In this document: piece after piece, positions 1-50,778 of the stretch
Position numbering within the stretch: the stretch's first letter is position 1
Layout: every line of letters starts with the position of its first letter
Assembly: GCA_036172245.1 (NCBI GenBank)
Contig: JAYWIR010000053.1
Coordinates: 372,001-436,000, forward strand
Direction of reading: 5' to 3'
Origin: Raillietiella orientalis
Lineage: Eukaryota
Length of the DNA stretch: 64,000 nt
Made by a program: the position numbers and the translations under genes
Notes under the pieces: generated by a model
What the model saw: the letters and a program-made list of their open reading frames with translations, nothing else
What the model was told of the DNA's origin: nothing
Database searches by the model: none

Positions 1-1780
1 TGACCGCCGTTTCGCTTGCATCGGCTAAGGAGCAGGTGCAGTGCGTAACGGGAACGGAATCGTCTCCCGCCGCGAGCGCGAAAAGTGAGCCGGCATCTAT
101 GGCCAAACAAATGAGGGGGGCGTCCGCCTCCTAGGACGGCGTCACCGACGCGGGATGGACTGGCGTCTCCAGGACGCCCAGAAAGGGGAAGAAGAAGGTT
201 GACCCTTCAATATTCCCCATCCTTAAGGTGGGTGGGAGGCAAAAGAGAAGCATGCCGAAGAAGGTGCGTACCTAGGTACGCAATACGACTGCTTGCTGTG
301 TCTCCGTCGCTTCGCGCGAGAAGGCGGCTGCGGAAGCCAAAGCTCAGGAAGCTGCGTTGGCGACAGCGACGACAACAGCGCGGGCAGGGCAAGCCTCCAC
401 CTGCCGAAACAAAAAGAGACTGGCAAAACGCCAGTCTCGCGCCAGGCACTCGGACTCCGAGGTGGAGTCCGAGTGCAACCAAATAAAGCGCGCATCCTGG
501 GGTGAGCCGGTAGCGTGCCGGGCTAAAGTGCTAAGGCACGAGCCTGTTCCCGGAGGCGGTTCCGGCTGCTGCACGGAGACCGAGGCGATGATCCTCGGCT
601 CACAGGACTCAGCTGGGCGCGATGTGGCGGCGAACCTGAGCGATTCCGCTTCCCAATCCGCTCTCCCACCCCCAGACTTCTCGCCGAACGGGGCGAGGAG
701 CACGCCGTCATGTCCGCAGCAGTGATGCGTGGACTCGCGTCCGCTCGTTGCGTCAGCGTAGCCTGTTGGAATGTCAACGGGCTAGTTGATGCTGACAAAA
801 GGCGGAAGGTAGCCAACGCTTTGCGCGCGTTCAATCTGGTGCTGCTGCAGGAGATACATAGCATCTTCGAACGGCAGGCATCGCATCTGGAAGAGCGCGC
901 GGGCGTCACGCTACACTGGCGGCAAGGCACAGCACACGTGCGGAGTCGCGTTTCTCGTCCTAGGCAGGGTGGCGGAGGCGGTGCGCAACGTTTGTTTCGT
1001 AGAGGAAGGTCGTGTGGGCCAACTTCTCCTCAAGTGGTCCGAATCGATCGACCTGGTCGTTACGAACATCAACGCGCCCAGTGGCGGCCGGCATTACGCG
1101 CAGCATCTTGCATTTCTGGGTGGCCTGCGCAGCCGCTGGCTCGCTGACTCCGGCCCTAACGTGGCGCACCTCCTTGCAGGACACTTCAACATCCACCTGC
1201 GAACAGAGGAGAGATGCCGCTTGAGGGAGAAGCAACTGGTGAGCGAGGTATGCGCGTCCGTGCGCGTACAAAACTTGCTTGCTGGTGAGCGCTGGATGGA
1301 GAGTTCGCCGGATTATGCGTTCCTCGATGAACACCTGCTCTCACGAGTAGGTCGGAAACGGCGCCTGCTGTCCGCGATTTCGCATCATCCGAGACTGGAG
1401 TTCAAGCTCCTGCCGCCTGGCAAAATTGCCTCCGATGAATGTTTGGAGGCTGCGGCCGACTGGCTTAGCAATTCGGAGGCGGCGGTGCATCTTCCCCAAC
1501 ACCTCCAGAGCTTCGCCATGCGTGTACTCGAGGACTGGGACGATCTCAAAAGATCGGTCCGCGATTTCTGTTGCCGGTTCCCCTTGCACCTGCTTCCCCA
1601 CGGCTTCGAAGAGGGTGTCGCGAACTGCAGATACTATCTGCAGGCGCGTACCTTCTCTTGATGCCCGGACGTCCGGCGTCCGGCGGAGTACAAGGCCAGA
1701 GATGAGCGCCAGGTTTGGCAGTCTGGAGCGGCTTGTCTGCTCCATGACGGTGGCCAGGAATGCTCGGCTGCAACCGAAGT
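1..1780 (+). mobile_element. Tx1/L1-like LINE fragment X: ORF1 tail (to 725) plus ORF2 APE endonuclease and linker, disrupted
   Basis: TGATG stop/start at 723-727; CWNVNGL, LLQEIH, TNINAP, AGHFN motifs; frameshift near 930 and stop at 1659-1661; ends at ECSAATE|V where the 3' terminus of B begins. Confidence 0.9.
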
Positions 1781-3946
1781 TTGTCATTCAAATGTGCCGG
1801 GGCATTTATTTTTCTAATTTTTTACAAAAATTAGATAATAGAGTCTTTAGAAAGATGTTTTCTGTGAAGAAACACTGGGTTCTCCCACCTTGCTTGACGT
1901 GTCGGTTGCCGGTGCATAGACCGGTTAGGTCCATTCCCGAGGCGCAGGGGAAGGGAAAACTAAAACAAAAACAAACAAATAGAAAGATAACGGGGAGGGA
2001 AACAGTTGTATGGGGAGAGATGGGGGGCAGGGAAGGGATCACTGGGCGCCTGGGTCGGTCCTTCGCATCCAGTTGAGGATGCAGTGAAGTTCAGTTTTTA
2101 TTCTGAAAGGTAGACGCCACCTTGTCGCCGTCTCTAAAGAGATCGTCGTCCAGTGGATGGCGTCCCTGCATCTTGGGCCTCTTCTCCTGGCGTGCCACCT
2201 TTGCACAATGCCGCGCACGCAGCAGAGGACAGCTAGAGACGCAGCGGGGCGCAGGACGTCACGCAGAAAGAGGCGACGCTAAATTTACTTAAAGTCGCCT
2301 ACTGGAAGATGGAGGATTGGGGCGATTCCACTCCAGAGTCTATCCAGGGCGACACACTCGAGAGTGAGATGCGGGAAGGTTTTTCTTTCTCCGCACTCGA
2401 CAGAGCGGGCATCCACATTCCCCAGTGTCCAGTGAGACAGGCGTGCTCTGCTTAACAGTCCCCAGTGCAGAAAAAGCAACGCCGTCTCCTGCCACTTCAA
2501 CGGAAGTGTGCCGCAATCCCAACACGCTGGGGGCAACTTCACCTCCTCCGGAGGTATCGCGAGCAGCACTCCCTAGCGCGCAAGTCCGTGAGGCGGGACG
2601 CTCGGGGTGGCAGCGTCCGTGAGCTCCCGAGTCGTCAACGCCTTTAAAGGTTTTTTCCTGCCTCGGATGAGGCAGGACACTTCCCACGATGCCTGCTCGT
2701 TAATGCTCTTAGTGTTTTTAAGGGAGGACAGAACGGGGGCAAGGGGGCTGAAAGAAGCCCACAGAAACTTCTGGGGCGTGTTGTTAATATCCTGCAGCGG
2801 CTGTCGACCGTACGGTCCTCGACGTAGCAGTTGTATTCCGCCTCGCTCGTGCCGTTGATCTTAGCCCACGCGGAAGCTGACTCCTGAAGCCAGGCAGTGC
2901 AGTTCGCGGGGAAGCAGGAGATCCAGGTATACTCCCTCATCAGGGCGACCATCTGTCGCAAATCGGGGCCACATTTGGAGAGGCTGCACTGGTAGGCCAC
3001 GAGGATGGAAGACAATCCTTCGCAGCCGGTCGCTCTTCTAGCGAGGAGCCTTGCCGGATCGTACCATGGCGTCATCCATAAGCTAGCCGCAAGGGCTAAC
3101 TTTCGACGTGTTGTTTGTAGTTGGATGCGCTCCAACGTAAGCAGGCCCAAGCCACCATCCCTGCGTGGAGCGCACAAGTCTTTCAATCGGACTCGCGAAC
3201 TCGCTGTTCTCCAAAGGGCAGTCCTCAAGTGGGCTTTGGTCCGTCTCTATATGATGGGAGAGGCGAAGCAAAAAAAAATTAAGGGGCGAAGGAGGATGGC
3301 CTCGAACGCGTTCCACACCGCGGCCCGCTCCTTCAAGTAAAACTTGCCGTTCCGGAACGGGCCGATCGCCTACTCCACCTGTTGGAGACGGTCTGACCAG
3401 GCTTCTGCAACGCAAAAGTCCCACAACGGAACGCCAAGGTACTCGAAGCACCTGCCCGTGGGGATCCCCAAGCGGATCCAGTCCGGCCGTCCGGCCCACG
3501 CCGCATTGTTTGAAAGTAGTGGTGATGTAGGAACGATTGTGGATTTCTCTCTGTTCACCTCGATGCCCGTCCCGTGGCGCAGCAACTCAAAGAAATAGTG
3601 TAGCGCCGACGTCGGAATGAACCCGGAGAGCAGGAGCAAAAGGTCGTCGGCGTAGGCCGACACGGCAGACGTGCCGGGACACGAGCTTGGCAGGGTTGCC
3701 AGTGTCTCCCTGTATGCCCTCAGCACCAGCTCGAAGTAGATGCTGAAGAGCATGGGGCTCAGACTGTCACCCTGCCTTATGCCACGCCGAACCGGCACGC
3801 CGAACACGTGCCGGCCGCTGAAATAAATATTGATGTACGCGAAGCGCCAGCAGGAGCGCAGGTAGGCCAAGAAGACGGCCGGAAATCCCAAGCGTTCCAG
3901 GAGTTCCCGAAGGAGCTCCTGGTCGACGCAGTCGAAAGCTTTACGT
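1781..3946 (-). mobile_element. LINE lineage B, 3' half (RT from RKAFD, thumb, C-terminal CCHC, 3' UTR), disrupted
   Basis: RKAFD, GIRQGDSLSP, AYADD, YLGVP, GGLGL, ECGERKTFPHLTLEC; 3' AATAAA and degenerate hairpin terminus at 1781-1810. Confidence 0.92.
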
Positions 3947-5190
3947 CGGCTAGAGCGGACGTGTTTCCTCGGTGCTCCTGTTACCGCAAACCGTCCCTAG
4001 GTGTAGGCTTCGTGTGTGGTGGTGGTCGATCAGGCAGCAATGCCTGACACGACCATCAGTGCGTGTCAGTCGGCGGTGGCAACGTCGCCTCTTGAAGGAA
4101 TGGAGTGCCAGGTGGCGGCGGAAACGTCGCCTTTAGAAAAGTTGGAGTGCCAGGGTACGGCGGCAACGTCCCCTTCAGTGGCAAAGGCGGTGAGGTCGTC
4201 CGCCCCCACAGAATGGGTCCCTGCTGCAGCGTGGGCGTGGAGCGCCGTTGTGTAGGCGCCATTGCCTGCAGCCGCGGCGCAATCATCTGCCTATGTGGAA
4301 GAGGAATATACCCCATTACTATTCTACAAGGTAGGAAATTTGTATCCTTCTGAGTGTGCGCGCGCCTTTTCGAAGGGGATGCGAGCTCTCGATGTTAAAG
4401 AGCAGGAGCTCTGCGCTATGACCATTCGTAGCGGGGGGCAGTACGTAGAGGTGATCTGCAAACATGCAGATCTGGCCCAACGTCTGCTCAAAACCCCAGT
4501 GGTAATGGGGACACGCAGGCTTTTTTTTATTTCGGCGGACCACAGTATGGTGGTCCACCTTTTAGGAGTTACCGCGCGGATGCGGAAAGAACAGTTACGC
4601 TTCGCGTTGGGAAAAGAAGGCACGGTCCATGCAGTATGGACCAACCCTAGTCCTTCCGAGGAATATACCGGAGTTCAGTGCGGACTCACGGCTGCCCGTG
4701 TAACCGTTCAGGATGGCTCTATTCTTCATCACAATCTGGTGGTCGGCGGTGAAAGCGTCGACCTGTGGAACGTGGGAAAGACAAAATACTGTGGCTTCTG
4801 CAACACGTCGGGACACCTCGAAAGGAGGTGCCCCAACGTACAGTGCCAGGTATGCGGGACAATGGGCCACACAAAAAAAGTTTTTCCGCAATCCGCTGTG
4901 CGCGTGGTTTCCGCGAGGAACAAAAAGAAACGCGCGCGGCTGCTACAGAAAAGGCTGGCGGAGAAGGCTGCCGCTCAAGCTGTGCCACCCACACCCCTGG
5001 TCCAGGCCGCAGTTGACACCACGGCAACGAATTCCGAAGAGATCGACAAAAGCGTTCAGGTGTCGGAATCGCAAGAAGCCACAGCGAAAAAGAAAAAGTC
5101 GAAGAAAGAACGACGAATTGAAAAAAAGCTCGCCTAGAAAAATAAAAAACAGAAGGATAGCGACAATTTAAAAGAATGCAGCGTCGTCGT
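3947..5190 (+). mobile_element. LINE lineage A, 5' end plus ORF1 (zinc knuckles), truncated
   Basis: 5' motif GCGGACGTGTTT at 3955-3966; CGFCNTSGHLERRC and CQVCGTMGH; internal stops at 4253 and 5135; homologous to 18906-20306. Confidence 0.9.
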
Positions 5191-7633
5191 TTATTACCCG
5201 GCTGCGCCGGGACGTTTATTATGATATCAACTGGGAACTGTGTTCCCAGGCAAGGGGAACAGAAAATGGGAAGTACATTTCCCGGAACGCAGTCCGGGCA
5301 CACTGAGAGCTCGGAACGGGAGGGGGTTAGACATGAAATCAATGAATTGGTTGGGAGGGCGGGGACAAAGCTATACAGTCTAACCTTTCCTATTCTCAGA
5401 GCCGGCGGTTAATGCCGCCGATCTCCATCCTCAGTTCTGTTCCAAGATGTGGCCACCCGTCAGCCATTTGCAGGTTGCAGGCTGCGGTGTAGGGGCCGAT
5501 GTTGGGACTCCTCGCATCTGTAATACGTGGCGGGCCCACACAATGGCGCACACGCAGCAGATGATTGCTACGACCGCTCCAAGAGAAAGTCCGCCACGCG
5601 TGTAGAAGCGGCGCATCCAATCCAGTGAGGTGTGTCCAGGGTGCAGGAGCGCTGAAGACAGCCGCTGCCACAGCTCCTGGAGGGCTCCGCACTCAAACAG
5701 CAAATGCGGAAGCGATTCCATCGCTCCGCATTTGGCACAGTTCGGGGACGCAACTCTCCCTGAAATCAGGTTCGCCCGCTGGTTGCAGTACAAACCCCAA
5801 TGCACCATCAGAGAAGCGTCCTGCGTCCGCCGAAGGGGGAAGAGAGTCGCGTCCAAACACGCAGAAGGGACCACAAGTTCATCGATGGGCACCCCGAGGA
5901 GCTCACTCCACCGGAGAAGCCCCTTTGCAAGAATGAGAGGTGTGGCAGCGTCTGCCACTTCGCAAGTCTGCCAGCCGCCCAGCAGTCGGGTTTCGCCTGC
6001 GATTTCGCAAGTGATCTCCCACCTCGCCGGCAGGTCACTGTCATCTGGCACCATCAGTGCACACAGTGCTTCGGCGAGTGTCGTAGCGGCTAGGTGTGTC
6101 CACTGGTCCTGGTCTTCCAGCACCTCCCCCATTTTACAGTATGGGGAAAGTTTCACGCAACGGAGTTCAAAACGCGACAAATCCTGTTGCGCTGCCCAGG
6201 ACGATAAGGCTTCCTGCCTCCAGGCGTTGAAGTTCGTCGGCCTGCAGAATATCCACTCATGCTTTCCCAGAAGCGTAGCGAGCTGCTTTGAAGGGAAGCC
6301 GAATCCTCTCTGGGCGCGCTCCGTGCGCAGATGCAACGAACGTAGTCCGTCGCCACCCGTCCTGCGCCGCAGCAGCAGCCGCGCTGTAGCACACCATGGA
6401 GAAGTCCAGAGCTGCGCACAAAGTGCCAGCATGCGGAACTGCACTAGCAGTCCGATCCGCTCCTGCGTCAGGATGCCCAATCCTGCGTCCCGTCGAGGAG
6501 CCGCCAAGTCCTTCAGGCGTATCCTGGACCTCGCCGGTCCCCACAGGGCGTCACGCAACAGGCGTAGCGCCCGGCGCTTAGCCGAGTAGGGAGGGGGACA
6601 AACAAAGAAGAGGGGACGGAGGAGGGGGCAAAAAAAATGTTCCACACGAAGGCCCGTTCCGATGGGGGAAACCTGCCGCCCTGGAGCGGGCCCAGAGCAG
6701 TCTTGGCCTTGTGAAGGCAGTGCGACCACGCTTCTCTTGGACAGAAGGCGACCAAGAAAACGCCGAGGTACTTCAAGCGCCTGCCCGTGGGGATCTTCAG
6801 GCCAATCCAGTCGGACTGCCGCTCCCACGAAAAGCCAACCGGTACAACGGTTGATTGCGTCCTGTTGATGCTCAGGCCCGCTCCCCGACGAATGAGCTCG
6901 AAGAACTTTTCGAACCTCGACGCCGGGGTGGACATGGGCAGCAGCAAGAGAAGTTCGTAAGCATAGGCGGCCACGGCCGGTGTTCCCGGGCAGGAGCTCG
7001 GCAGGTTGGCCAGCGTCAGCCTGTACGCCCTCAGCACCAACTCAAAGAAGATGCTGAAGAGCAGGGGGCTTAAGCTGTCTCCCTGCCTGATACCCCGCCG
7101 TATGGGAATGCCGTACACGTGGCGCTTGCTGAAATAGATACTGCATAACGCGTGGCGCCAGCAGGAGCGCAAGTAGGCTATAAGGTGCGTCGGGAGGCCT
7201 AGGCGTCCCAGAAGCTCCAGAAGGAGGTGCTAGTTTACTCTGTCGAACGCTTTGCAGAGATCGACGGCGACCGCTAAGGCTCCCGGCGTTCCATCGTGCT
7301 TTGAACACCGCCGCTTACCTTTGGCAGCGGCGATTTCGGCTGCCTGGCTCTGCTGCGCCACGCGCTGCTGCAACTCGAACCATATTCGCGCGAAGAAGAG
7401 ATTCGCGTCCATGGACCGACCCGGAACAGCATACGTCTGCTCCGGACTTACCAAGGACTCTGCGATTCTCCCCAGGCGCGCGACCCATAGCCTGGAGAAC
7501 AACTTTACGTCCGAATTTACCAATGTGATCGGACGCCAGTTGCTGAGGTGGCGCAAATCATTGTCTTTCGGCAGGAGCCGCACCTTTGCTGAGCGGAAAG
7601 AAGCGGGAACATCTCATGTCTCACGCATCAGCG
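5191..7633 (-). mobile_element. LINE lineage C, 3' part (RT plus C-terminal domain plus 3' UTR), disrupted
   Basis: NWRPITL, EQTYAVPGRS, VDLCKAFD, RQGDSLSP, mutated YAYE, CAKCGAMESLPHLLFEC; hairpin terminus at 5191-5220. Confidence 0.92.
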
Positions 7634-8745
7634 ACGGTCGCGTACGGACGTGCTTTTGCGTCGCTCCGTTGTAGATTGCTCTTGTGTGTTTTTGTTCTGC
7701 TGTGCTTCTGTGCTGCAATGGGAGCAAAGAAGAACATCAGCCGCAAGAAGGGAACGCCACCTGCTCCTGAGATGCCTGCTTCGGCTGCTAGCAAGGAGCC
7801 TCTGTCCTCGCCGACGGCGAGGACATTCGCCCAGGTCGCTGCTCTCGCGGCTACGATGGGACCTTCGCCCGACAGCCCTGAGCTTCAGGCGTATGTAGCA
7901 AATGGCTACACGCTTGCACTCAGGTGTAAGGTAAGTGTCCTTATGCCTGAGCGGGTTGGGCGCGAGTTTGGCCAGGAACTCCAACGGATTGGAGTTCAAA
8001 AAGGCCAACTGGAGTCCATCATTCCCATGAGTGGGTGCGGCTAATGAAAGGTGTCCAGTAAGGACGCTCTTCTTACGCAGCGTTTGCTACACACGCCGTT
8101 GCTCATTCGTGGGCAGGAAATACTCACTGTCACAACGGACCAGTCGTTCGTTGTCCGGCTCAGTGGAGTGTGTAAGGGCCTTTCGGACCGCCAGGTCGTG
8201 GAGGCCCTTGAAAAATTCGCTACCGTCCACGCGCATTGGAGGCTGCCAAACCCTGCTGAAGGGTTCGAAGACCACCACAGCGGGCTCGCGCAAGTGCGAG
8301 TGACGATGACGGATCGCCGTGCAATGCACACGCGACCGCAGGTGGATGGAATGACCGTCCGCCTGTGGTTTTCCGGGCAAACGCGTGTATGCGCGGAATG
8401 CGGACAGGAGAGTCATCGCATTACGAAGTGTTTCTCGGCCGCTTGCCGTTACTGCCAGGAGCACGGGCACACTAAAGTAACGTGCCCGGAGCTCCTTTTA
8501 AAAAACGAAAAGCGCAGGAACGAATCGCGTTCCGCATCGCGGAATAATCGCCGCGAATCAAGAGAAAGAAACATCAAAGCTTCGAAAAGCGTTGCGAAAA
8601 CCGCGACCACGGACGTGCAGAAAACTGTTTCTCCCCTCCACAAAGAAGGGGTGAAAAACAAAAAAACTCGTCGCGGCGAAGCCTCCGGCTATCGAACCGA
8701 AGGAAGCTCGCGAAGAATGCGACCGACTCGCGGGTTCTCCCGTTG
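7634..8745 (+). mobile_element. LINE lineage D, 5' end plus ORF1 (ATG 7718, one internal stop at 8042), truncated
   Basis: GTACGGACGTG at 7642-7652; CAECGQESHRITKC and CRYCQEHGHTKVTC; homologous to F ORF1. Confidence 0.88.
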
Positions 8746-10689
8746 CCCCAAAGGGCGACACGGAGGAGGTCCTTCGTTCGCTTGTTGACCCTCTCTGTGG
8801 GGGGGCAAACAAAAAGCAGGGAACGGAGGAGAGGAGTAGCGAACATGTTCCAAACCGCGGCCGTTCAGGCAAGAAAAACCTGCCGCCTCGGAACGGGCCG
8901 ATAGCCGTCTCTACTTTTTGAAAGCAGCCGGACCACGCTTCCGCAGGGGAGTAGTCCCCCAACGGCACACCAAGGTACTTGAAGTACCTCACCGTGGGGA
9001 TCCCGAAAGGGACCCAGTCCTGCTGCCCTGCCCACGCCGCATCAACTGGCATCACGGACGACTTCGCCCTGTTCACCGTAAGCCCGGTTCCTCGATTCAG
9101 CAGGTCGAAGAACTTCTCGACCGCCGAAGCCGGGGTGGACATAGGGAGCAGTAGCAGGAGGTCGTCCGCATATGCTGAAACCGCAGGCGTTCCGGCGCAT
9201 TCATGGGGCAGGTGCGCCAGAGTTTCCCTGTACGCTTTCAGTACCAACTCAAAGAAGGTACTGAAGAGCAAGGGGCTCAGGCTGTTTCCTTGCCAGATCC
9301 CAGGTCGCACCGGCACGCCGTGAACATTATGCCCGCTGAAAGTAACATTGGTTAGCGCATCGCGCCAGCTAGAGCGCAGATAGGCAAATAATGAGGCCGG
9401 GAAGCCCAAGCGTTCCAAATGCTCCAGCAGGAGATTCTGGTCGATGCTGTCGAATGCTTTACGCAAGTCGACAGCGACCGCAAGTGCTCTCTCCCCCATC
9501 CGACCATTCGTCGCATGACTGACGGACTCACCGGAACTCCCGGTGCGCATCAAGCCCCTTTCGTGTTGGAGCTCTAGCCAGGTGGATGCGTGGAACAGGT
9601 TCGCCTCCATGCTTCGCCCCGGAACAGCATATGTCTGCTCCGGGCTAATTATGGATTCTGCCACCTGCCTTAGACGCGAAGCCCATAGCCCGGCAACCAA
9701 CTTGGCGTGCGTATTCACAATCGTGATCGGACGCCAGTTGTTCAAATTCCTAAGGTCTCCCCCTTTCGGAAAGAGCCTCACTCTGGCTGACCGAAACGAG
9801 GCGGGAACATCGCCTTCGTCTCGGATCAGCCTTGTCAGCTGAAGCAGCAGGGGTTCCAGCTCTTCCGCGAAGCTCTGATAGAACTCGGCGGGCAAGCCGT
9901 CTTCCCCTGGAGCTTTCCGCAGCTTGAGCCTTTTGATACCGGCGAGAATTTCGCCGGTGGTAAACGGCTCATCGAGGCTTAACGACTCCTCCTCTCCTAT
10001 TGCCGCAGCACCATCCGGAAGCAAGAGCCGAGAGGCACCTTGATCCGGGGGCGCCCTGGCGTAAAGGGAGGAGTAATAGCTCCGCACGAGATGCCGTACC
10101 GACGCCGGGGACAAACATTCCCGGCCCTGGTCGTCCAGCAAGCTGGCCGACCCGGATTGCCAGGCTTGGCATTCGGCCCCGGCGCGGTACTCGGCCAGGC
10201 GATGGACATTAGGGGTTCGCTCGTACCTACGGGCCTGTAAATAGGCCCGATGGTTGCGAGGAATCTCGCCGAAACCGGAGGGCAGGCGGTCCGGGGGGAA
10301 CTGCTCGCAGAACTCCCGGACCGATTCCTTAAAAATGACCCAATCCTGAAGATTGCGGAGCATGACGCCTCTCAGGTATTTGCGAAGGTGTTCCTTCGCA
10401 CCTGAGAGTCGCGTCCAGTCTCCGGGTAGACGCCAGTCCCTGGATCGCGGTCCTTTGTCGCGAGGCCGCAGCTCGCAAATTAACCGGGAATGGTCCGACA
10501 ACGTTGACGCAACCCTCCCCCGTTTGCCGACCCGTGAACACAGGTCAGCGTCGTGGAAGACGTGGTCGATGCTGCGGACCATTCCCCTCTCACCCGCGAA
10601 CAAGTTGCGCGCACGCATGGCGGCGCACAACTCGTTCATCGCGTTCACTTGTGTTTCCGGCTCACCTGTTAGCAGGCGGAGATTGAAAT
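8746..10689 (-). mobile_element. LINE lineage E, ORF2 middle part (second half of endonuclease plus RT); continuation of 16596-18905
   Basis: FNLRLL, SIDH, SDH, KAPGEDG, NWRPIT, VDLRKAFD, AYADD, YLGVP; frame joins GDFN at 16596-16610 once F is removed; 3' end absent. Confidence 0.93.
10681..10689. repeat. Target-site duplication of F (GATTGAAAT), partner at 16596-16604
   Basis: Identical 9-mers abut both element termini. Confidence 0.93.
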
Positions 10690-11002
10690 TTATCACCCGG
10701 TCACGCCGGGGCGTTTATTAATAATAATAAACTGGTCAGGGACAATGTCCCCAACCAAGAGAACGACAGAGAACATAGAAAAATTACCGGCACGCAGGCC
10801 TGGTAAACAAACCGCTCGCAGCGTGGGGGGAATGAGGGGAAACAAACAAAAATCAAAAACTGGAGGGAAGGGAAAAGGGTTTTTGGTTAGGCTCCGTACT
10901 CACGGGGATTTATACGATGAGCACCTAAAATGTTCCGGAGCCTATGGGGACGCGGGTGTAAAAAGAAAATACAAATTTAGTTTATGGAGGGTAGGGCAAT
11001 GA

Positions 11003-14000: not shown

Positions 14001-14595
14001 CGTGATCGAGCGATCTTTCCATTCCAGGTTCGCTGACCATCAAGTTGGCGGCGTGCACGGACGCGCACATCTCGATGGGCAGCGCGCGCTTCCTCGGGCG
14101 GCTCCAATCGTCGGAGAGCAGGCGGACGTTGAAGTCCCCAGCGACGAGGTGCGCCACTTGGAAACCGGAGTTGTTGAGCCAGTGGCTCTGCACCTCATCA
14201 AAGAAAGCTACTCTTTCTTCGAGGTAGCGAGAGCCACTCGGCGCGTAGACGTTCGTAACGACGAGATCGATGGACTCGGACCACTTGATGACAAGCTGGC
14301 CTATCCGTCCGTTGTCATCGAAACGAACACTACGCACCGCTTCCGCCATTTTTCCTCTTACGAGGAACGCGACCCCGCACGTGTGTGCGCCGCCGCACCG
14401 CCAATGTAGCGTTCCGCCAGCGCGCTCCTCGATTTCGGCTGCCTGCTCGTCGGAGATTACGTGAATCTCCTGCAGCAGCGCGAGGTCGAAGGGGCGCAGG
14501 GCGTTGGCTACTAATCGCCTCTTCTCGTCGTTCTGCAGTCCGTTCACGTTCCAACACGTTACGGACAGACGACGAGAAGACGCGATTCCCCGCAT
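11003..14595 (-). CDS. ORF2 protein (~1200 aa): APE endonuclease, RT, CCHC; single frameshift near 12230
   Basis: WNVNGL, QEIH, NVYAP, GDFN, LDH, SDH, QTYAVPGRS, KAFD, RQGDSLSP, YADD, CVRCGSTESIPHLLLDC; ORFs 12103-14595 and 11003-12280 join at a homopolymer-rich stretch. Confidence 0.9.
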
Positions 14596-36839: not shown

Positions 36840-37354
36840 GTGGCGGCGTTTGATCTTTGAAAAGCAAACCGTTGGGTAGCAATGCATCTTCATGACCTCA
36901 TGAAAAGTAGAATTCCCTGCTGGCTCCTGGCACATAGGAAAGCATGAAAGAAAATCAACTCCGAAACAAGTTCGAAACAGCACGAGCTTCAACCACTATT
37001 CAGATTAAAATCAACTGGTGACGTGGTGCAAAATATGGAAACTTCTGTAAGTTTCAGCCCACACGCCTATTCACATCTGTTCGTTTGAACTTGAAGGGGA
37101 CGCACGAAATCCCAAACAAACGTCAATTTTTGGCAGGTGACGTTATACCTGGAGTGACAACGGAACAAGGCTTTCGTGATTTCCATATTGGCTGCTTTTC
37201 TCATCGTTACCACCACAACTCGTAAATAGCAGCTGGAGGGGAGTGCACCTGTCATGAGTCAGTGGCTCAGTCCCCCGAGGGATTGCTAAATGGCTTTTAG
37301 CACGCAGATTGCAATTTGGTTAGAGATGCTCTTGTAAGCAGCATGCTTCCCATC
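36840..37354 (-). repeat. Diverged inverted repeat, right arm
   Basis: Reverse complement aligns with 34096-34590. Confidence 0.85.
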
Positions 37355-40783: not shown

Positions 40784-40813
40784 CATTCCTTAATGCTTCG
40801 CCAAACCTATATT

Positions 40814-41824
40814 GAGCGGATGCGTCTGCACCGCGCTACAGAGCAAAAATGGTGTCGGTGAACTTCTGTTTAGGTGTGTGTACGTGCATAGTGTTGCCTA
40901 TGTCCCATGAGAGCGATGCCTGTGGAAAACGCGATCGAAATTAGAGTAGGGAAGGCGAATCTTCTCTACAAGTGAAGGATGTGTAAGCGACCGTTCCTAC
41001 GGAATGCTCTTCGTGCTATTTGAGGGAGCTCTAGCAGAAGCCACCGCCTATAAGGCAACAAGCTGCATGTGGGCAATTATACACAAGGTAGGTGGCATGT
41101 ACTTGGAGACACATTACACGTGTTCACCAATGAACTCCAAAGATTAGAAGTTAAAGAAGAAGACTTTTAAGGTCTTACCGTGCAGAGTGGGTGTCAGCGC
41201 ATCAAGCAGAATTGCAAAGACGTAAGTGTGGTATAGCGCTTGCTAAGAACGCTATGTTGCTATGCCGACGCAACTACTTCCCTGTCACCGAAGAACGGCA
41301 AGTAGTGATCCGAATGACAGGCATCACTGGTCAGATGATTAAAAATGCAGTAAGAAAGAAACTCCAGCATCACGGGAACTTGCGCGCGCGTTGGAGCAAG
41401 TCCTACCACTTTGGGGAGTACGAAAAGCTTTTCAGAGTACCGTTCGCCGGGCTCGCAACCATCGAAAAAAACTCAAGGCTTTTCCAAAAGATCTAGTTGG
41501 GAAACAAGTCCGTGCATTTATCGTACGTGAAGAAGTCTGAGTAACGCGGGCACACTGATGCTACGGATTACTTAAAAAACTGGTGCCCGAAAATGCAGGG
41601 AAACCTTTGTCAAGAGAAGGGTCACAGGTCACATGCCTGGCGTTCTCCCAAAAAGAGAAGCCCAGGCTTTTTATTCTCAAACTATCAAACAGAAGTATCG
41701 CGAACAAAGTGCCGACAACGCCGGCGGAAGCCAAGACTGGCAGGTGGTGAAGACCCGAAACAACGTGCAGCGAGCCCAATAAAGGCGAAAAAACCTGTTT
41801 GCGCGCGACGACCACCTGAAGCTC
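40814..41824 (+). pseudogene. Decayed E-like ORF1 (resumes at 42383)
   Basis: VVIRMTGITGQM, knuckle remnants CPKMQGNLCQEKGH. Confidence 0.75.
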
Positions 41825-42382
41825 TCGTCGATCCTGAACATTCCGGTGGGCGACCCAAAACATCTATTCAGACGCCTCCTGACGCGAGACGGCTTGCCAG
41901 CCTCCGGGAGCGTAGCAGTGCTCTGCTGCATACGCGGTATCCTGGAGAAGTGGACCGCGTCTAGGAGAGGAAGGACCAGCCGGAATGCCATCCACTGGGC
42001 AGCGATCTCCTTGGAGAAAGCGTGCCGTTGGCGCCGACTTAATAAACATTTACCGGCACTTGTTGGCATCCGAAACCGGATGCAAAGGCCTCCTCACGGC
42101 GCACTGTGATCCCCTCCCTCCCTCCCCATCCCCAAAAAACATTGCCCTCCACAGGTTAATCTTTGTTTTTTTGTTTTATTTTTTATTTTCCCCGCTCCGA
42201 CGCTAGTGAGAAGGACCATATCAGCCTCCGAGTTGGTAAGGACAAGTGCAACAACACGACGATAAACTTCTGAATGTCCTAAATAGGAAAATTAACTTTG
42301 TTTAAAAATTTAGTCCTTATTATGAAATTTTTGTATTCTCAACAATTTTAATAATAAAAGCCCCGGCTTACCCGGGTGAAAA
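41825..42382 (+). mobile_element. 5'-truncated lineage H insertion with 14-bp TSD ACCACCTGAAGCTC (41811-41824 / 42383-42396)
   Basis: Identical 14-mers flank it; VLCCIRGILEKW; hairpin terminus. Confidence 0.93.
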
Positions 42383-42439
42383 ACCACCTGAAGCTCCGGG
42401 AATTACTGGTGAACCTCCAAGAAAGAGCGTGAGCAGGAC

Positions 42440-42614
42440 GAAATCCTCTCGCTGCAATGATGCCCTTCTTCATTAACCACTTGGACAGCAGCACCGCGGC
42501 TGCATGGGAAGTCATCACCGGAACAGATAAACAGAAAAGACTGGAGAAAAAGCTCGCGTACCGCAGCAAAAAGCAACTGGGCAGCAAGGAAAGAAAAAGA
42601 TGCAGCGTAGTCTT
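42440..42614 (+). pseudogene. Lineage A ORF1 fragment ending at KRCSVV
   Basis: KRLEKKLAYRSKKQ...RCSVV matches 5100-5190 and 19105-19200. Confidence 0.8.
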
Positions 42615-45600
42615 TTATCATGCGATTGCGCCGGGACGTTTATTGTTGAAAGCATTTTGTAACCGTGTTCCCATGCTAAAAGAACAGAATATGGGAGGAG
42701 GGTTCCCGACATGCAGGCCGAGCACACTGAGAGTTCGAAACGGTAAGGAGGGGAAAATAAATAAATAAATATGGTGGTAGGGTAGGGATAGGGGTCTGCA
42801 GTTCCAACCGTTCTTTGTCTCAGGATCGGCGGTGAATGATAGCAATCTCCGTCCTCACTTCTGCGTCAAGGTGATGCCACCCGGCCGTCAGTTGCATATT
42901 GCAGGATGCACTGTAGGGGACCGATGTTGGAACCGCTGCAACACGTGGCGGGCACTGACAATGGCTCCGACACAGCCCACAATTGCAAGGACCGCTCCCA
43001 GAGATAGACCGCCAAGCGTGAAGAAGCGGCGCATCCAGTCCATTGCCGTGTGTCCGGGGTGCAGGAGCGCTGAAGACAGCCTCCGCCACAGCTGCTGAAG
43101 GACACCTCATTCAAATAGCAGATGCGGAAGCGACTCCACCGCCCCGCATGTTGCACAGTTTGGGGACGCGACTTCTCCGGAAACCAGGTGCGCTCGCTGG
43201 TTGCAATACACAACCCTTTGCACCAGCAGAAAACCGTCCTGTTTCCACCAAAGGGGGAACACAGTCGCGTCCTAGCACGAAGAAGGGACCACAAATTCTT
43301 CGTAGGGCACCTCGAAGAGCTCGCTCCTCTGAAGAAGTCCCTTGGCACGAATACGAGGCGTGGCAGCGTCTGCCAGCTCTCAGGTACTCCAGCCGCCCAG
43401 AAGTCAAGTTTCGCCTGCGATAGCGCAAGCGACCTCCCACTTCGCCGGTAGGTCACTGTCGTCTCGAACCATGAGTGAATACAGTGCTTCCGCGAGGGGC
43501 GTAGCGGCTAGGCATGTCCATTGGTCCTGGTCTTCCAACATTTCCCCCAACTGACAGTATCGGGAAAGGTTCACGCAACGGAGTTTCAATCAGGAAACAT
43601 CCTGTTGCGCTGCCAGGGACGATGAGACTTCCTGCCTCCAGGCGTCAAGTTCCGTCGGCCGGCAGGAGATCCATGGATGCGTTCCCAGAAGCGAGGCAAA
43701 CTGCCTCACAGGGAAGCCGAAGGCTCTCATAGCGCGCTCGGTAAGCAGGTGCAGCGAACGCAGTCCGTCGCTACCCGTGCTGCGCCGCAGCAGCAGCCGC
43801 GCTTGAGCACACCAGGGAGTAGTCCAGAGCTGCGCACAAAGTGCCAGCATGCGGAACTGCACTAGCAGTCCGATCTGCTCCAGCATCAGAATGCCCAAGA
43901 CGGCAACCCGCCGAGGAGCTGCCAAGTCCTTGAGGCGGATCCTGGACCTCTCCGGTCTCCACAAGGCGTTCCTCAACAGGCGTTTCGTCAGACGCTTAAC
44001 CAAGTAGGAAGTGCGAAAAACAAAAAAGAGGGGACAGAGCAGGGGGACAACCAAAATGTTCCACACGAAGGCCCGTTCCGACAAGAAGAACCTTCCGCCT
44101 TGGAACGGACCCAGAGCGGTCTCGGCCTTGTAAGGGCAGTCCGACCACGCTTCTCCTGGACAGAAGGCGCCCAAGGGAACGCAAAGGTACTTCAAGCACC
44201 TGCTCGTGGGGGCCCCCAGGCGGATCTTGTGGGACTGCCTCCCACGTAGAGCCAACCGGTACAACGGTTGATTTTGTCCTCTTGACTCTCACGCCTCCTC
44301 TCCGTCGAACCAGGTTGAAGAAATCTTCGAAACTGGACGCCTGGGTGGACATGGGGAGCAGAAGAAGCATGTTATCTGCATAGGAGGCCACGGCAGGCGT
44401 TCCCGGGCAGGAGCTTGGCAAGTGAGAAAGCGTCAGACTGTACTCTCTCAGCACCAACTCAAAGATGCCAAAGAGCAACGGGCTTAAGCTATCACCTTGC
44501 CGGATGCCCCTACGCACGAGAATACCGTACACTCGGCAGCCGCAGAAAGTGATGCAGGTCAGCGCGTGGCGCCAGCAAGCGCGCAAGTAAAGCAGGAGTT
44601 GCGTCGGGAATCCAAGGCGTTCCATAAGCTCCAAGAGCAGCCTCTGGTTTACGAAGTCGTATGCCTGGTGGAAATCGACCGCGATCGCCAAGGCCCCTGA
44701 CGTTCCCTTCTGCCGTCGGCGCCTGTTCTTCGTGCCTGCGGCTACGACTTTCGCCGCAGCCAGGCTTTGCTGCGCCACGACTTCCTGTAGCTGCATCCAG
44801 GTACGCGCGAAAAGGATGTTCGCCTCCATGGATCGTACGGGAACCGCGTAGGTTTGTTCCGGGCTCACCACAGATTCCGCGATACTCCCTAACCGCGCAA
44901 TTCACAGCTTGAAAAACAACTTGAGTCCGAGTTCACCAAGGTGATCGGACGCCAGCTGTTAAGTTATCGCGAGTCTCCGCCTTTCGGCAGGAGACGCACC
45001 TTCGCTGAGCGGAAGGAATCCGAGACCTTCCTGGGTTCCCTCATCAGCGTCGCGAGTCTCAGCATCAAGGGGATGAGCTCCACTGCAAAGCACTGATGAA
45101 ACTCTGCAGGAAGCCCATCCTCGCCTGGCGCCTTTCGTCTCTTCAGCCCAGCGATGGCGGTCGAAAATTCATGCGCCGTCAAGGGCTCGTTGAGACGTTC
45201 GCGTTCCTCCTCGCCGACAACAGGAGCATCCTGCGACAGGAGTATCTCAGAGAGAATATCCTCCGTCGGGGATTCAGCGTACAGCGAGGAGTAGTAGCGT
45301 CTCACAATGCGGCGTATTTCGGCTGGGGCCGAACATTCCTGGCCCTTTTCATCCAACAGGCATGCTGCTCCGGACTGCCAGACCTGGCGCTCGGCCCTCG
45401 CCTTGTACTCCGCGAGACGCCCGACATCTGCACATTTGGAAAACGTGGAGGCCTGCAGAAATTCTCTGCTGCTGGCCATGCCTTCTCCGAAACCGCATGG
45501 AAGCCGGTGCAAGGGGAATTGCCAGTAGAACTCGCGAAAAGATCTTTTGAGATCGTCCCAGTCGGCGAGTTCTTGAATGGCGAAGCCTCGGAGGTGTTCA

Positions 45601-48357
45601 AGGAGATGCTCCGCAGCTTCCAGATGGCTAAGCCAATTCGCCTGCATCCTCCAGTTTTGCAACGGAGGTCCCTTGCCTGGCAAAAGGAGCTCAAACTTCA
45701 AACTGTGGTGGTCAGAAATCCCAGTCAACAGTCTTCCTCTCTTACCCACACGCGAATGCAGGTTTTCATCAAGGAAAACGTGTTTGAGCGATCTTTTTAT
45801 TCCAGGTTCGCTGACCATCAAGTTGGCGGCGTGCACCGACGCGCACATCTCGATGGGCAGCGCGCGCTCCCTGGGGCAGCTCCAATCGTCGGACAGCAGG
45901 CGGACGTCGAAGTCCCCGCGACGAGTTGCGCCACTTGAAGGCCGGAGTTGTTGATCCATAGAAAGCTACTCTTTCTTCGAGGTAGCGAGAGCCACTCAAC
46001 GCGTGGACGTTCGTAACGATGAGATCGATGGACTCGGATCACTTGATGACAAGTTGACCTACCCGTCCTTCGTCGTCGAAATGAAACCACGCACCGTTTC
46101 CGCCATTTTTCCTCTTACAAGGTACGCGACGCCGCACGTGTGGGCGTCGCAGCACCGCCAAAGTAACGTTCCGCCTGCGCCCTCTTCGATTTCGGCTGCC
46201 TGCTCGTCGGAGATTACGTAGATTTCCTGCAGGAGTACGAGGTTGAAGGGGTGAAAGGCGTTCGCTACTAATCACCTCTTCTCGCTGTTCTGCAGACCGT
46301 TCACGTTCCAACACGCGACGGAAAGACGACGAGAAGACGCGATTCCCAGCATCACGGCTGGGAACGCGGCGGCTTTTTGCTCTCTGAATCCGACAAGCGG
46401 ACGGCGAGCAGCACGCATGGCTGGAGGGCACGGTCGCCACCGGTCTCCAAGGTGCTACCGAGAGACGAGCGTTCCTTCCCGGGGACTAATTTTGCGCCCT
46501 CAAGGGAGTTCTCGGACGTTAGAGGGGCATTCTTTTCATGCATGTTTGCGGTTTCGTGCCGCAGATTTGCTTCCGCGCGAGTGATGCGTTTCTCGGCAGT
46601 ATGTTCCGACTTCGCTCGAGAGTAGGGCTGTCGAGGTTTGTTTTCACGATTCGTTGGTCGAGTGGAAGCTGCTGGACCTGCAGGATTTTTCCTTACCTTG
46701 CGTTGGCCTTTTTCTGCGCTTTGCGCAATTTGAGCCGTAGCTGGTTTTGCAAGGGTGACCTTCACGCAGGAATTTTTGGGGGGGCGTTTGTTCTTCTCTT
46801 TACCCAGAGAGACGGACGAGGGCAGCGGAGCATTCTTTGAAGGGTTCTTCTCTTCCTTTGGCTGCGGTCCACCACCGTCCATCCATCTTCGCAGTCTCGC
46901 GGCTCGTTCACGCCTTTGCAGGAGATTTCGATTTCATCGGCGAGCTCCTCAGGCGCTGTCTGCGCGCCGGCTTTAAGGGCTGACTCCGGCGATATCGCAG
47001 TCGCAGTTAAGGCATCGTTCTCCGAGGGGGAAGGCGGAGAGCTGCTGGTTGCTTGCGGCGCGCAAGTTCGCGACAGTTCATGATTTCCGGCTTTTACTGC
47101 CGGTCGGATGGCGTCCTCCTTCTTCCCTGGCTGCATAGCCATCGGAGAAAGGAGCGCAATCGGAGTAGCCGATATCCCGTTACTACGGTGCTTTCCTTTA
47201 AACCCCCCTGGCACCATAGTCGCGTCGGCCTTCGTGTTTCTCGACCGTTGCACCGCGATTTCGCCTTGTAACCCCGCGACAGTTGCTGGGCGTTCATTGC
47301 CCTTCCGTGCATTTATTTGCGGGGTCCGCGCGTCTCGCGATCGTCCGCGCATGGTTTCGCAGTTGAAGATCATGGTTCCTTCCTCGATTTTTCACGCGCT
47401 TGATTGCGATCATTGCTTTGCGCATTCCTGACGTCTTTCGCGGTCTTTTTCCTTTCCGCGGTCATTTTATGCCTCTGAAATTTAGCGGCCGCCTTCTTCC
47501 AATCATGTTCCGTACACTTGTTCAAAGCGTGCCCCGGTAACTTGCAGTATCGGCAGTTACCAGAGGAGCATTTTGCGGTCCGATGCCCCTCTTCATCGCA
47601 TTTCTCACACGTGCGAGGCCTTCCTGCATTCCAAAGGTGAACGATCGTGTCGTTCACCTTTAGCTTCGCGGGTAACGTTCCGCGGTCCGCCATGGTGATT
47701 CGAACTGCGGCGATTCCACCGTGCGGGGATGGAAAGTCCCTGAAGGGCTCCGAACCTTCCACAGCGCATGGACGATGCCGAACTTCGCCAACGCGTCTCT
47801 GAGATCGTGATCTGATATGTTCGACTCTACGTCGCACATTTCAATCACGAAGGAATGGTCCATGGGGGTTGGGAATACCTTCTTCCCACGGATAGATATC
47901 GGAGTGCGTAGCAAGCGCAGCACAAGTGCCGCGTCCTTGATTCGCAACTTGTAATAACCATTGCTCTTAATGGGCATAATGGCGAGAAGTTCTTCCTCCC
48001 GCACGCCTATTCGGGTCAATTCATCGTTGAATCGACCCACGTCGCGAGAAGAAAGACACTCGCTCACCTTATAACGGAGAGCGGGGATACAGCCCTGGGC
48101 TACGTCAGCCCGCCACTCCGTCTTTTCGGGGGGTCCCCCTTTGACGGCTGCTGCGGCAGCAACGTCAGCGAAACTTCTCGCCATTGGCGAGGCAGACGAA
48201 GAGGAGGCGGCCGTCGGTTCCGCGATTGCACATCCGGATGCTGTTCCTCCAACTTCAGCAGCTCCGGGGTTGGTCGACATCGTCGTCAGAATGCTCGACA
48301 CCAGGATGAAGCGAGTGAAAGCCCGGAGACGAGAGCGAGGAAAAACACGTCCGCACT
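42615..48357 (-). mobile_element. Full-length-sized but chimeric LINE (F-type 5' part, C-type 3' part), disrupted; ORF1 46352-48280, ORF2 42820-46352
   Basis: 5' AGTGCGGACGTGTTTT, TGATG at 46350-46354, all EN/RT motifs (YADN), 3' terminus at 42615-42645; no matching TSD. Confidence 0.92.
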
Positions 48358-48725
48358 GGTTGAAGTCTCCCGCTATCATTTGAGTCTTCCGCACATTCGT
48401 TTCCGCAAGCCTGTTGCGCATCGATGTTTCCAGGAACACTGTGCGTTCCCGGTACCCCTTTTTTCCGCTGGGGGCGTACACGTTTGTGACGATTAAGTCG
48501 ATCGACGCTGCACTGCGACGTCCGCCACCTGTTGCGACGGAACGCTAGGTGGAGGAGGGGGTGCTGAGGGCACCTGGTCCCCCTCCTCCATTGTTATCGG
48601 CGCGTTGGGCGGGTCTCTCGCAGATGGGGTCGCGCCTACCTTTCTGTTCTCCTCCATGGGAGCGGGCTGTTCAGGGTCGGCGACTGCAAGGCGGAATTCG
48701 CCCTCCTGCTCACCCTGATCCATTG
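48358..48725 (-). mobile_element. Lineage E remnant: ORF1 tail fused by deletion to endonuclease IDLIVTNVYAP...IAGDFN
   Basis: PMEE repeats; similarity to 16600-16740 and 17090-17300. Confidence 0.85.
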
Positions 48726-48764
48726 GGGTGAGCAGTTGGTGCGGCGTTTGCAGGGCAGAAGGAC

Positions 48765-50778
48765 TGGGTTCGGCGTGGCATAAGGCAGGGTGACAGTCTG
48801 AGCCCCCTGCTTTTCAGCATCTACTTCGAGCTGTTGCTGCGGACATACAGGGAGACTCTTGCAACCCTGCCGAGCTCGTGTCCCGGCACGCCTGCCCTGT
48901 CGGCCTACGCCAACGACCTTCTGCTCCTGCTCCCCGGGTCCACCCCTGCGTCCGCGCTCCAAGATTTCTTTGAGTTGCTGCGCCGCGGAACAGGCCTCGA
49001 CGTGAACAGAGAGAAATCTTCAATTGTTCCAAAATCACCACTGCTTTTTCACAATACGGCGTGGGCCGGACGTACGGACGGGATCCACTTGGGGATCCCC
49101 ACGGGCAGGTGCTTCAAGTACTTGGGCGTTCCGTTGGGGGACTTCTGAGCGGCAGAAGCCTTGTCCGACTGTTTCCAAAAGGTGGAGTTGGCGATCGGCC
49201 CCTTGCGGAACGACAAGTTGTACTTTCAAAAGCGGGCCGCGGTGTGGAACGCGTTCGCGGCCCCCTTCCTTCTCTCCTTACTTTTTGTTTGCCCCGCCCC
49301 TCCCATCATACAGACACGGACCAAAGCCCTCTTGAAGACCGCCCTTTGGGGCACAGCGAGGTCGCGAGTCCGATTGAAAGACTTGTGCACTCCACGCAGA
49401 AACGGTGGTTTGGGCCTCCTGACGAGGGAGCGCATGCAAAAAAAAATCAACCTTCGGAAGCTAGCCCTTGCGGCGAACTTATGGATGACGCCATGGTGCG
49501 AACCGTCACGACTCCTTGCCAGAAGAGTGACCGGCTGCGAAGGATTGTCCTCGATCTTCGTGGCCTACCAGCGCAGCCTCGGTAACAACTGTGGCTCTCA
49601 TCTGCGTCAGATAATCGCCCTGCTCATGGAGAATACCTGGATTTCCTGCCTTTCCGCGATCTGCACTGCCTTGCTTCAGGTGTCAGTCTCCGCGTGGGCT
49701 AAGATTAGCGGCACGAGCGAGGCGGAATACAACTGCCTACGCCGAGGACCGTACGCTCGACAGCCGCTGCAGGAGATTATCAACACTCCCCGGAAGTTTC
49801 TGTGGGCTTCTTTCACCCTCCTTGCCCCTGTTCTGTCCTCCATGAAAAACATGAGGAGCAGCAATGAGCGCACATCGTGAGAAGTGTCCTGCCTCATCCG
49901 AGGCAAGAGAAAACCTTTTAAGGCGTGGACGACTCGGGAGCTAACGGACGCTGCCACCCCGAGCGTCCCGCCTCACGGACGTGTGCGCTGTGGAGAGCTG
50001 CTCGGAATACCTCCGGAGGAGGTGAAGTGGCCCCAAGCGTGTTGGGATTGCGGCACACTTCCGTTAAAGTGGCAGGAGACGGCGTTTCTTTTTCTGCACT
50101 GGAGACTGTTAAGCAGAGCACGCCTGTCTCACTGGACACTGGGGAATGTGGATACCCGCTGTGTCGATTTCGGTGAAAGAGAAACCTTTCCGCATCTCAC
50201 CCTCGAGTGTGTCGCCCTGGTTGGACTCTGGAGTCGAATCGCCCCATTCTTCCATCTTCCAGTAAGCGACCCTAAGTAAATTTAGCGTCGCCTCTTTCTG
50301 CGTGACGGCCTGCGCCCCGCTGCGTCTCTAGCAGTCCTCTGCTGCGTGCGCGGAATCGTGCAAAGGTGGAACGCGTTAAGAAGAGGCCCAAGATGCAGGG
50401 ACGCCATCCACTGGACGACGAGCTCCTTGGAAACGGCGACAAGGTGGCGTCTACTAGCAATGACAAAAACGGAACTTGTCTGCATCCTGCAGAGGATGCG
50501 GAGGACCTACCCAGGCGCTCATTGATCCCCTCCCTGCCCTATACTTCCCCATATAACTATTCCCCCTCCCCGTTGTTTCCCTTTTTGTTACCTTGTTATT
50601 TATTTTCCCCCTCCCCCGCGCCTGGGGAGAGGACCTCGCCGGTCTAATGACCGGGTAGCGAGAATATTGCAGCGTAAGAGAACCGAGTGTTCCCTCACAA
50701 AAAACTTTTTTAAGGCTTTATTATCTGATTTTCGTCACCAATTAGAATAATAAATGCCACGGAATATCCCGGTGACAA
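48765..50778 (+). mobile_element. LINE lineage B (copy B'), 3' half, disrupted
   Basis: Closely similar to the reverse complement of 1781-3790; YAND; terminus AATAAATGCCACGGAATATCCCGGTGACAA. Confidence 0.92.

Follow-up and report, generated by a model that had tools for sequence, protein, structure and literature searches.

Sibling LINE lineages that probably insert sequence-specifically into each other's coding motifs in a nested island of Raillietiella orientalis

Introduction

Do retrotransposons that crowd into one genomic island land in their relatives by chance, or do they recognise defined sites within them? This question is raised by a 64,000-nt stretch of the Raillietiella orientalis genome (assembly GCA_036172245.1, contig JAYWIR010000053.1, positions 372,001-436,000, forward strand), hereafter called the window, from which all junction evidence comes and to which all coordinates refer. 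Positions 1-24,400 and 42,600-50,779 form an island that consists almost wholly of fragments of one family of long interspersed nuclear elements (LINEs), in which at least five lineages of this single L1/Tx1-like family reside together. The GC content of the island is 56-62%, that of the stretch between its two parts 41-50%, and that of the sequence beyond about 47-54%. Target-specific LINEs are known for the genes of ribosomal and small nuclear RNAs, microsatellites, telomeres and a few transposon families, and Zepp elements nest into themselves. An initial annotation had proposed for this locus a network of LINE lineages aimed at conserved coding motifs of their siblings. Judging from the sequence, we consider it probable that these lineages do insert sequence-specifically into sibling LINEs, at sites defined by a DNA word.

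The family has two open reading frames (ORFs), ORF1 with two putative CCHC knuckles and ORF2 with an APE endonuclease (EN), a reverse transcriptase (RT) and a C-terminal domain. Lineage F is represented by element X, lineage A by Z1 and Z2 and lineage C by C1; the other lineages are named Y, D, H and T.

Recurrent junctions

Three pairings of invader and target recur at the same base, and a fourth probably does. Lineage F lies in sense orientation in the EN motif GDFN, where the 5' ends of X (16596) and X2 (48358) stand in the same register after the GDFN codons of a Y-like EN, and the two hosts have 18 of the 20 bases upstream of the junction in common. X itself is a full-length element of 5.9 kb (10690-16596, minus strand), with ORF1 and ORF2 open but for one frameshift. 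It splits a Y element into a 3' part (8730-10689, minus strand), which runs from GDFN through the RT to about residue 50 of the ORF2 C-terminal domain and lacks its own 3' end, and a 5' part (16597-18906, minus strand) with the 5' end, an ORF1 with two CCHC motifs and the EN up to GDFN. X2 (42613-48357, minus strand) is contiguous over 5.7 kb, and its 5' flank is the GDFN of Y3 (48358-48730, minus strand), a decayed Y-like copy that retains the end of ORF1 and EN residues of about 119-167 and ends at GDFN.

Lineage A is found antisense in the RT motif RKAFD. The 5' ends of Z2 (3946) and Z1 (20306) lie immediately past the R codon, both exactly 11 nt before GGACGTG. Z2 (3946-5188, plus strand) has a full 5' end and ORF1 up to the motif CSVV, and it is hosted by H2 (1780-3945, minus strand; RVT_1 E 2.8e-13), which extends from RKAFD to the 3' end of ORF2 and its element, bears the tail TGACAAA behind a decayed hairpin and is 87% identical to H3. 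Z1 (18907-20306, minus strand), likewise with a full 5' end and ORF1, is hosted by H1 (20307-22386, plus strand), which also runs from RKAFD to the 3' end (hairpin at 22365-22379, tail TGACAAA) and groups with C1, X2 and X, not with H2. The CSVV of Z1 is intact and unoccupied (19109-19120).

This CSVV motif of ORF1 is the place at which lineage C is found in antisense orientation, with the 3' ends of C1 (5189) and X2 (42613) immediately past the fourth codon. C1 (5189-7639, minus strand; hairpin at 5197-5211) spans ORF2 from about residue 455 to the 3' end and adjoins the CSVV of Z2, and the 3' flank of X2 is the CSVV (42601-42612) of Z3 (40901-42612, plus strand), an old, diverged ORF1 that ends there. 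The probable fourth junction, read from an alignment, lies in the linker between EN and RT, where the 3' ends of H2 and H4 meet E1 and E2 in antisense at the same alignment column, residue 364. E1 (695-1779, plus strand; aligned by tblastn to residues 2-364 of X ORF2) is a host ORF2 fragment reaching from the EN to residue 364, its right edge cut by the 3' end of H2. E2 (26419-27627, minus strand) is an older EN fragment with the same end column, abutted by H4 (plus strand), a decayed H-like 3' end that ends at 26418.

The element ends have a common form. At the 5' side, a 6-nt leader is followed by GGACGTG and a T-rich stretch; at the 3' side, AATAAA, 3 nt and the hairpin CCCGG-N5-CCGGG are followed by TGAYAAA. 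As to a poly(A) or simple-repeat tail, no A-run was seen at the 3' ends read in the window. The hairpin motif occurs six times (0.09 expected), as does GGACGTGNTTT (0.14 expected), and an additional seventh 5' end lies at 3957. LINE coding sequence adjoins all seven recognisable 5' ends. Among ten mapped 3' ends, eight adjoin LINE sequence, one (H3, 50779) adjoins non-LINE DNA and one (40785) was placed in neither class; a decayed eleventh near 29480 was left out of the counts. Thus 15 of the 17 mapped termini abut LINE sequence, which bears out the initial observation that nearly all termini lie inside family members. By hand arithmetic over 17 termini (136 pairs) and about 12,000 positions times orientations, about 0.01 exact coincidences would be expected, compared with the three and the probable fourth seen.

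Base-by-base reading upheld the three pairings of the initial annotation (GDFN, RKAFD and CSVV) as exact. Its description of the targets as catalytic motifs holds for GDFN and RKAFD and fails for CSVV, which lies in the tail of ORF1, and for residue 364 in the EN-RT linker. A further candidate pairing, of the D1 5' junction with the T24942 3' junction, both antisense and near 'LTRLIR(D/K)EG', was rejected as one site type: the two lie about 20 bp apart, 41 nt beside T24942 belong to no assigned element, and about 0.45 such near-coincidences would be expected (hand arithmetic).

Two side observations concern the 3' ends. The 5-bp stem of the terminal hairpin is invariant, so that covariation in it is uninformative both ways. 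Upstream of it, the 3' untranslated regions (UTRs) contain a second, longer hairpin of the type GGGAAC..GUUCCC (on the element strands, 10690-10760 in X, 5189-5260 in C1 and 22316-22386 in H1), which is kept in all three with at least one paired change; the fold of the X 3' end has a z of -4.4. This longer hairpin may be a recognition structure for the RT.

Element X and its empty site

The most complete record of a single insertion is that of X. Its frames comprise an ORF1 of 671 codons with two CCHC motifs, an EN/RT frame of 841 codons and, past one frameshift, a C-terminal frame of 436. It is flanked by a target-site duplication of 8-9 bp (10681/2-10689 and 16596/7-16604) within the GDFN codons of Y, and its removal restores the in-frame G-D-F-N-L-R of Y. 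In one read contig, moreover, 10680 is followed by 16596 across nine ambiguous letters; it reads as a Y-like EN without X, and its shorter side is only 30 nt long. The reads were available as short Logan contigs, in which most joints reflect cross-mapped paralogous RT segments and were excluded, and uncovered parts were not taken as evidence; one sequencing run contains the window (share 0.54), and two sister runs contain next to none of it. On these flanks, X is an element inserted by target-primed reverse transcription with target-site duplication, the one element in which such a duplication was seen.

Could the junctions be artefacts, either mis-joins of the assembly or chimeras from template switching during reverse transcription? 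Some features would fit: all elements but one have mismatched flanks, D1 is joined to Y without a 3' end and across nine unassignable bases, and wherever a read contig crosses a junction, at least one side measures less than 31 nt. However, copies with 55-88% identity would not repeatedly be mis-joined at one base, junctions between a complete terminus and an antisense ORF cannot come from homologous collapse, and X is bounded by a clean target-site duplication, its empty site being seen in a read contig. We therefore hold an artefactual origin to be very improbable.

The GDFN codons of X itself (14128-14142) differ from the two occupied sites (16597-16611 and 48359-48373) in the base triplet before GAY and in the base after AAY. 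From this single case, the differences may represent self-avoidance.

A recombinant element

X2 carries an F-type 5' junction and a C-type 3' junction in one element, and the two observations that it provides, one for F and one for C, are therefore not two whole elements. Over the first 2.2 kb of ORF2, X2 is about 84-94% identical to X, then 65-70%; past that point, sliding identity to C1 is 81-86%. Read from its 3' end, X2 is C-like to about 44285 and X-like (about 90%) onward through the EN, and a single switch at X 12502-12504, corresponding to X2 44284-44286, fits 553 of the 687 informative sites. By this profile, X2 is a recombinant of two lineages. The simplest reading is an unequal recombination between an F copy in GDFN and a C copy in CSVV, both on the minus strand, in which the DNA between the two parental copies was lost. 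Owing to such recombination the nest is not a clean stack, and most of its elements have mismatched flanks.

A separate peculiarity concerns ORF1. When 15660-16346 is set against 47400-48103, the identity of X to X2 is about 88% for the 5' UTR and about 90% for the first two-thirds of ORF2, but only 41-61% for the latter half of ORF1 (alignment columns 800-2000). Besides the F/C breakpoint, this suggests that ORF1 tails were swapped or evolved very fast.

Independence of the paired insertions

Recurrence at one base could also be inherited. One ancestral nest per junction might have been multiplied as dead DNA, through segmental duplication or through gene conversion between homologous hosts, a scenario that the initial annotation itself had named as fatal to its proposal. 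In its favour, a recent segmental duplication (99.6%) and a clear recombinant are present in the window. The phylogeny of the hosts speaks against such copying. From RKAFD to the end of ORF2, the two hosts of lineage A are 55% identical to each other, whereas H1 reaches 70% with each of C1, X and X2, in all three of which RKAFD is uninterrupted. The ORF2 tree separates (Y,(H2,H3)) from (X,(H1,(C1,X2))) with support of 96-100, and a clade of H1 and H2 is rejected by the approximately unbiased test (p-AU 4.06e-07). Likewise, the C host Z2 has the unoccupied Z1 as its sister (100/100), and Z3 falls together with Y and Y2; uniting Z2 and Z3 in one clade is rejected (p-AU 0.00063). In both cases the paired hosts are thus not sisters, and uninterrupted relatives stand between them.

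Divergence within the pairs was compared as well. In pair F, the host EN (108 of 147 positions identical) is more diverged than the invader (258 of 299; Fisher p 0.0015), and synonymous divergence (dS) amounts to 0.99 in the host and 0.26 in the invader. Against this, a second host segment of pair F is identical at 184 of 221 positions, and the comparison of all host sequence with the invader gives only p 0.024. Pair A fits a duplicated nest as far as identity goes: within 300 bp of the junction, host (216 of 291, 74%) and invader (188 of 258, 73%) are equally diverged, and dS is equal as well (0.95 in the host and 0.96 in the invader, both near saturation).

The ratio of nonsynonymous to synonymous divergence (omega) bears on all pairs tested. 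For the hosts it is 0.31 in pair A (0.22-0.45) and 0.20 in pair F (0.07-0.47), for the invaders 0.155 in A, 0.40 in C and 0.60 in F; across this range of 0.16-0.60, the bootstrap upper limit lies below 1 in every tested pair, which speaks against neutral decay of a duplicated nest. Judged by these ratios, purifying selection acted during the divergence of all tested pairs of hosts and of invaders. Since an interrupted host cannot evolve under selection, the hosts must have diverged as active lineages before each hit. The two F events moreover differ in age, as X is near-intact and X2 decayed: none of the 1,948 codons of X is a stop (probability of zero stops 0.0016 at 3% neutral decay), and the part of ORF2 that X2 has in common with X contains 4-5 stops and 7 indels. 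The single duplicated nest is thus rejected by host phylogeny, by omega below 1 and by the younger age of X relative to X2, and we assign it a very low probability.

Recognition of the target

What, then, do the invaders recognise? The F site reads AGA^YTTCAAY. The intact X homologue of the site occupied in E1 and E2 reads GTA^CTTC in the sense of the invader, and the target of H1, as inferred from Y, is GTA^C; F and H sites have A^YTTC in common. A further case is H3 (48768-50779, plus strand), a 5'-truncated copy of lineage H whose 3' end falls within non-LINE DNA, ahead of CTTCAACC and at the word GTA^CTTC. A 99.6% identical paralogue of its flank begins exactly at the junction, and the site there is empty, again GTA^CTTC (59383-59389, plus strand, at the edge of the duplicate). 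Insertion at the same word in non-LINE DNA suggests that the specificity is for a DNA word and not for LINEs as such; in this point, the proposal of a network aimed at relatives is not supported. Targeting looks sequence-driven rather than LINE-driven, with a word that can occur outside LINEs. AGAYTTCAAY occurs twice in the window and is occupied both times, and 11 GTACTTC words are free, so that the recognised word would be longer than 7 bp. The flank CTTCAAC of H3 had also been considered as a GDFN-like target; the H-lineage word GTA^CTTC fits better.

The duplicate itself is a direct one of 1,420 bp (50779-52198 and 59385-60804, 99.6% identical), whose left edge coincides with the H3 3' end. 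The sequences left of its two copies are unrelated, so that the 5' flank at which H3 originally inserted is missing.

Several observations weigh against sequence-specific insertion into siblings. Each junction type rests on two observations, and the 11 free GTACTTC words indicate that this 7-mer is not sufficient to define a target. The two 5' ends of lineage Y lie at unrelated places, and neither D nor T has an exact recurrence. X alone has both flanks from one target, while those of the others are mismatched or missing and mostly allow a reading of one end. For the fourth junction, the overall alignment of H4 with H3 yields 76 matches compared with a shuffle mean of 86, only the last 30 nt or so being alike. 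For lineages A, C and H the window contains no endonuclease, so that no protein is tied to their targets. Further, the X junctions are crossed by read contigs over less than 31 nt, and the assembly of repeats could contain errors.

Part of this evidence would fit a simpler situation without dedicated targeting, in which the endonucleases prefer short, common words and insertions accumulate regionally, in an island of heterochromatic or centromere-like nature. LINE coding motifs would then be hit only because the island consists of them, and most insertions would lie elsewhere in the genome. The H3 insertion outside LINEs with its empty paralogue, the A^YTTC common to F and H sites, the non-catalytic position of two of the four sites and the missing recurrence for Y, D and T are all compatible with it. 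On the other hand, it does not account for four exact coincidences among 17 termini when about 0.01 would be expected over about 12 kb of LINE on both strands, nor for the upstream bases that the occupied F hosts share; and the occupancy of both AGAYTTCAAY words next to 11 free GTACTTC words indicates recognition of more than 6-7 bp. We consider this explanation unlikely, though less so than a duplicated nest or an artefact.

Proposed mechanism

If insertion is sequence-specific, each lineage would insert by target-primed reverse transcription, its APE endonuclease nicking a specific short DNA word. These words would lie in conserved coding stretches: GDFN in sense for lineage F, and in antisense RKAFD for A, CSVV for C and the linker at residue 364 for H. 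An X-like EN would preferentially nick GGAGAYTTCAAY, and the EN of X (residues about 17-240 of the 12106-14628 frame) would nick both strands 8-9 bp apart, around ATTTCAAT(C). New copies would land in older relatives at the same base so that the island grows by nesting, and ectopic recombination between homologous copies would later reshuffle the nest. We infer that the specificity is determined by the endonuclease, and that the use of conserved motifs owes to their being abundant and slow to change. That such motifs are a safe harbour is conjecture, and that insertion also knocks out a competitor is speculation.

A more far-reaching idea is that of a guild of siblings whose endonucleases have been retargeted to each other's codon blocks (GDFN, RKAFD, CSVV and the EN-RT linker). 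Rivals would then be the main landing pad and be disabled on landing, giving a reciprocal network of parasites on parasites; hosts would escape by synonymous or near-synonymous changes of the site, as perhaps in the GDFN of X, and self-growing LINE islands would be a by-product. We regard this extension as doubtful, if slightly less so than untargeted insertion.

Family assignment and comparison with known systems

The 841-amino-acid frame of X at 12103-14628 matches Exo_endo_phos (E 4e-13, 50 bits, cut-off 24.5) and RVT_1 (E 1.4e-21, 77.6 bits, cut-off 29.6). The closest solved structure to ORF2 is human L1 ORF2p (PDB 8sxt and others; RT E 5.8e-48, EN E about 1e-5), and R2 proteins matched far more weakly in the PDB comparison. 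In ORF1, zf-CCHC reached 18.5 bits, under its cut-off of 20.8, and retroviral nucleocapsid matches had E values of 0.015-0.1; two CX2CX4HX4C motifs are readable in the translations. By the EN-then-RT order of ORF2, the family is classed as an APE-type non-LTR (long terminal repeat) retrotransposon of L1/Tx1-like kind. Public data contain next to nothing of this family. A protein database yielded 43 matches, with a single close one (P0001, 61% identical, Y-like) from a 2.9-kb contig; the others were at most 30% identical and mostly unnamed. A metagenome scan with the ORF2 alignment found eight loci, all 27-28% identical and none of this LINE family, and an ORF2 query of the ESM Atlas returned only generic EN/RT clusters.

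Human L1 ORF2p has the same domain order. The sites nicked by L1 are AT-rich and loosely defined, and its 3' end is poly(A); the elements described here differ in their hairpin and TGAYAAA ends and their specific sites. R1 and R2 are LINEs specific for ribosomal DNA that insert base-exactly into a conserved multicopy host gene, R2 by means of a restriction-like endonuclease. Base-exact insertion into a conserved multicopy sequence is common to them and to our elements, but R1 and R2 target a host gene and not a retrotransposon.

Closer parallels come from the Tx1 clade. Many of its LINEs are target-specific, which is attributed to the endonuclease (excerpts of PMC4494074). According to the same excerpts, Tx1 targets the piggyBac element Tx1D, Tx1-Mar targets Mariner-N4_AMi, Tx1-8_Crp and Tx1-4_AMi target LTR retrotransposons, and Tx1-9_AMi targets Harbinger elements (PMC4494074). 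As far as these excerpts describe them, such LINEs resemble ours in being APE-type, with copies at one position of another transposon family and sometimes in antisense. In contrast, the targets here are coding sequences of sibling lineages and the relation is reciprocal, with Z copies in RTs of both the C/X group and the H group and C-lineage copies in Z ORF1. The elements in the window also differ in having no poly(A) or microsatellite tail, and their likeness to the clade lies in sequence-specific insertion.

Zepp and Zepp-like L1 elements of green algae form nested clusters by insertion into existing copies, as stated in excerpts of three papers (PMC8226300; PMC3446292; PMC9940879), which give a GC content of 61% for Zepp and 53% for the genome. 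GC-rich nested LINE clusters above less GC-rich surroundings are thus common to both systems (here about 58-62% and 41-50%). Zepp is portrayed in these excerpts as one family, inserting into copies of itself and leaving arrays mostly of 5'-truncated 3' ends, whereas in the island of R. orientalis at least five lineages and seven full-length 5' ends are present. Zepp-like centromeric L1 elements are characterised by one cluster per chromosome. The excerpts mention neither base-exact motif sites nor cross-targeting among several lineages (PMC8226300; PMC3446292; PMC9940879). A literature search of limited coverage, based on partial texts, returned no description of several sibling lineages of LINEs that insert at fixed coding sites in one another. 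The evidence supports sibling-LINE coding sites as the novelty here, as a thinly sampled variant of target-specific LINEs.

LINE islands mark centromeres in some algae. If true, sequence-specific insertion into siblings would offer a natural system for how APE endonucleases change specificity, for direct competition between transposons by insertional knock-out, and for the growth of LINE-only islands, as candidate centromeres, without harm to genes. The four target words, the intact X and its endonuclease could serve as reagents for nicking assays.

Other features of the window

D1 (7640-8720, plus strand; terminus reading) has a full 5' end, which adjoins C1 in antisense at about residue 455 of ORF2, and an ORF1 broken at 'REEC', at the CSVV-equivalent position or at most about 9 nt from it. 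The nine bases that follow (8721-8729) belong neither to D1 nor to Y, which has no 3' end here; a 3'-truncated insertion at a CSVV-like site or a later deletion are possible causes of this join. Y2 (22387-24408, minus strand) comprises a 5' end, ORF1 and the first 74 or so residues of ORF2, where it is cut by the 3' end of H1. Next to the T24942 tail, 41 nt (24879-24919) that gave no match separate it from a Y-like ORF2 fragment and may be a longer 3' tail of the T24942 lineage or filler DNA.

Between the two GC-rich parts of the island lie older, AT-richer relics, E2 and Z3 among them; a 5'-truncated T element (41822-42384) sits inside Z3. This AT-richer middle also contains two inverted repeat pairs of 73-76% identity (31790-32251 with 37359-37822, and 34096-34589 with 36842-37354), neither of them LINE-like by tblastn and neither with a Pfam domain in its frames. 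Across the non-LINE parts of the window, 24 frames matched no Pfam family. Finally, at 58727-58864 on the minus strand, an isolated RT relic of 46 residues, 52% identical to H2, lies in otherwise non-LINE DNA.

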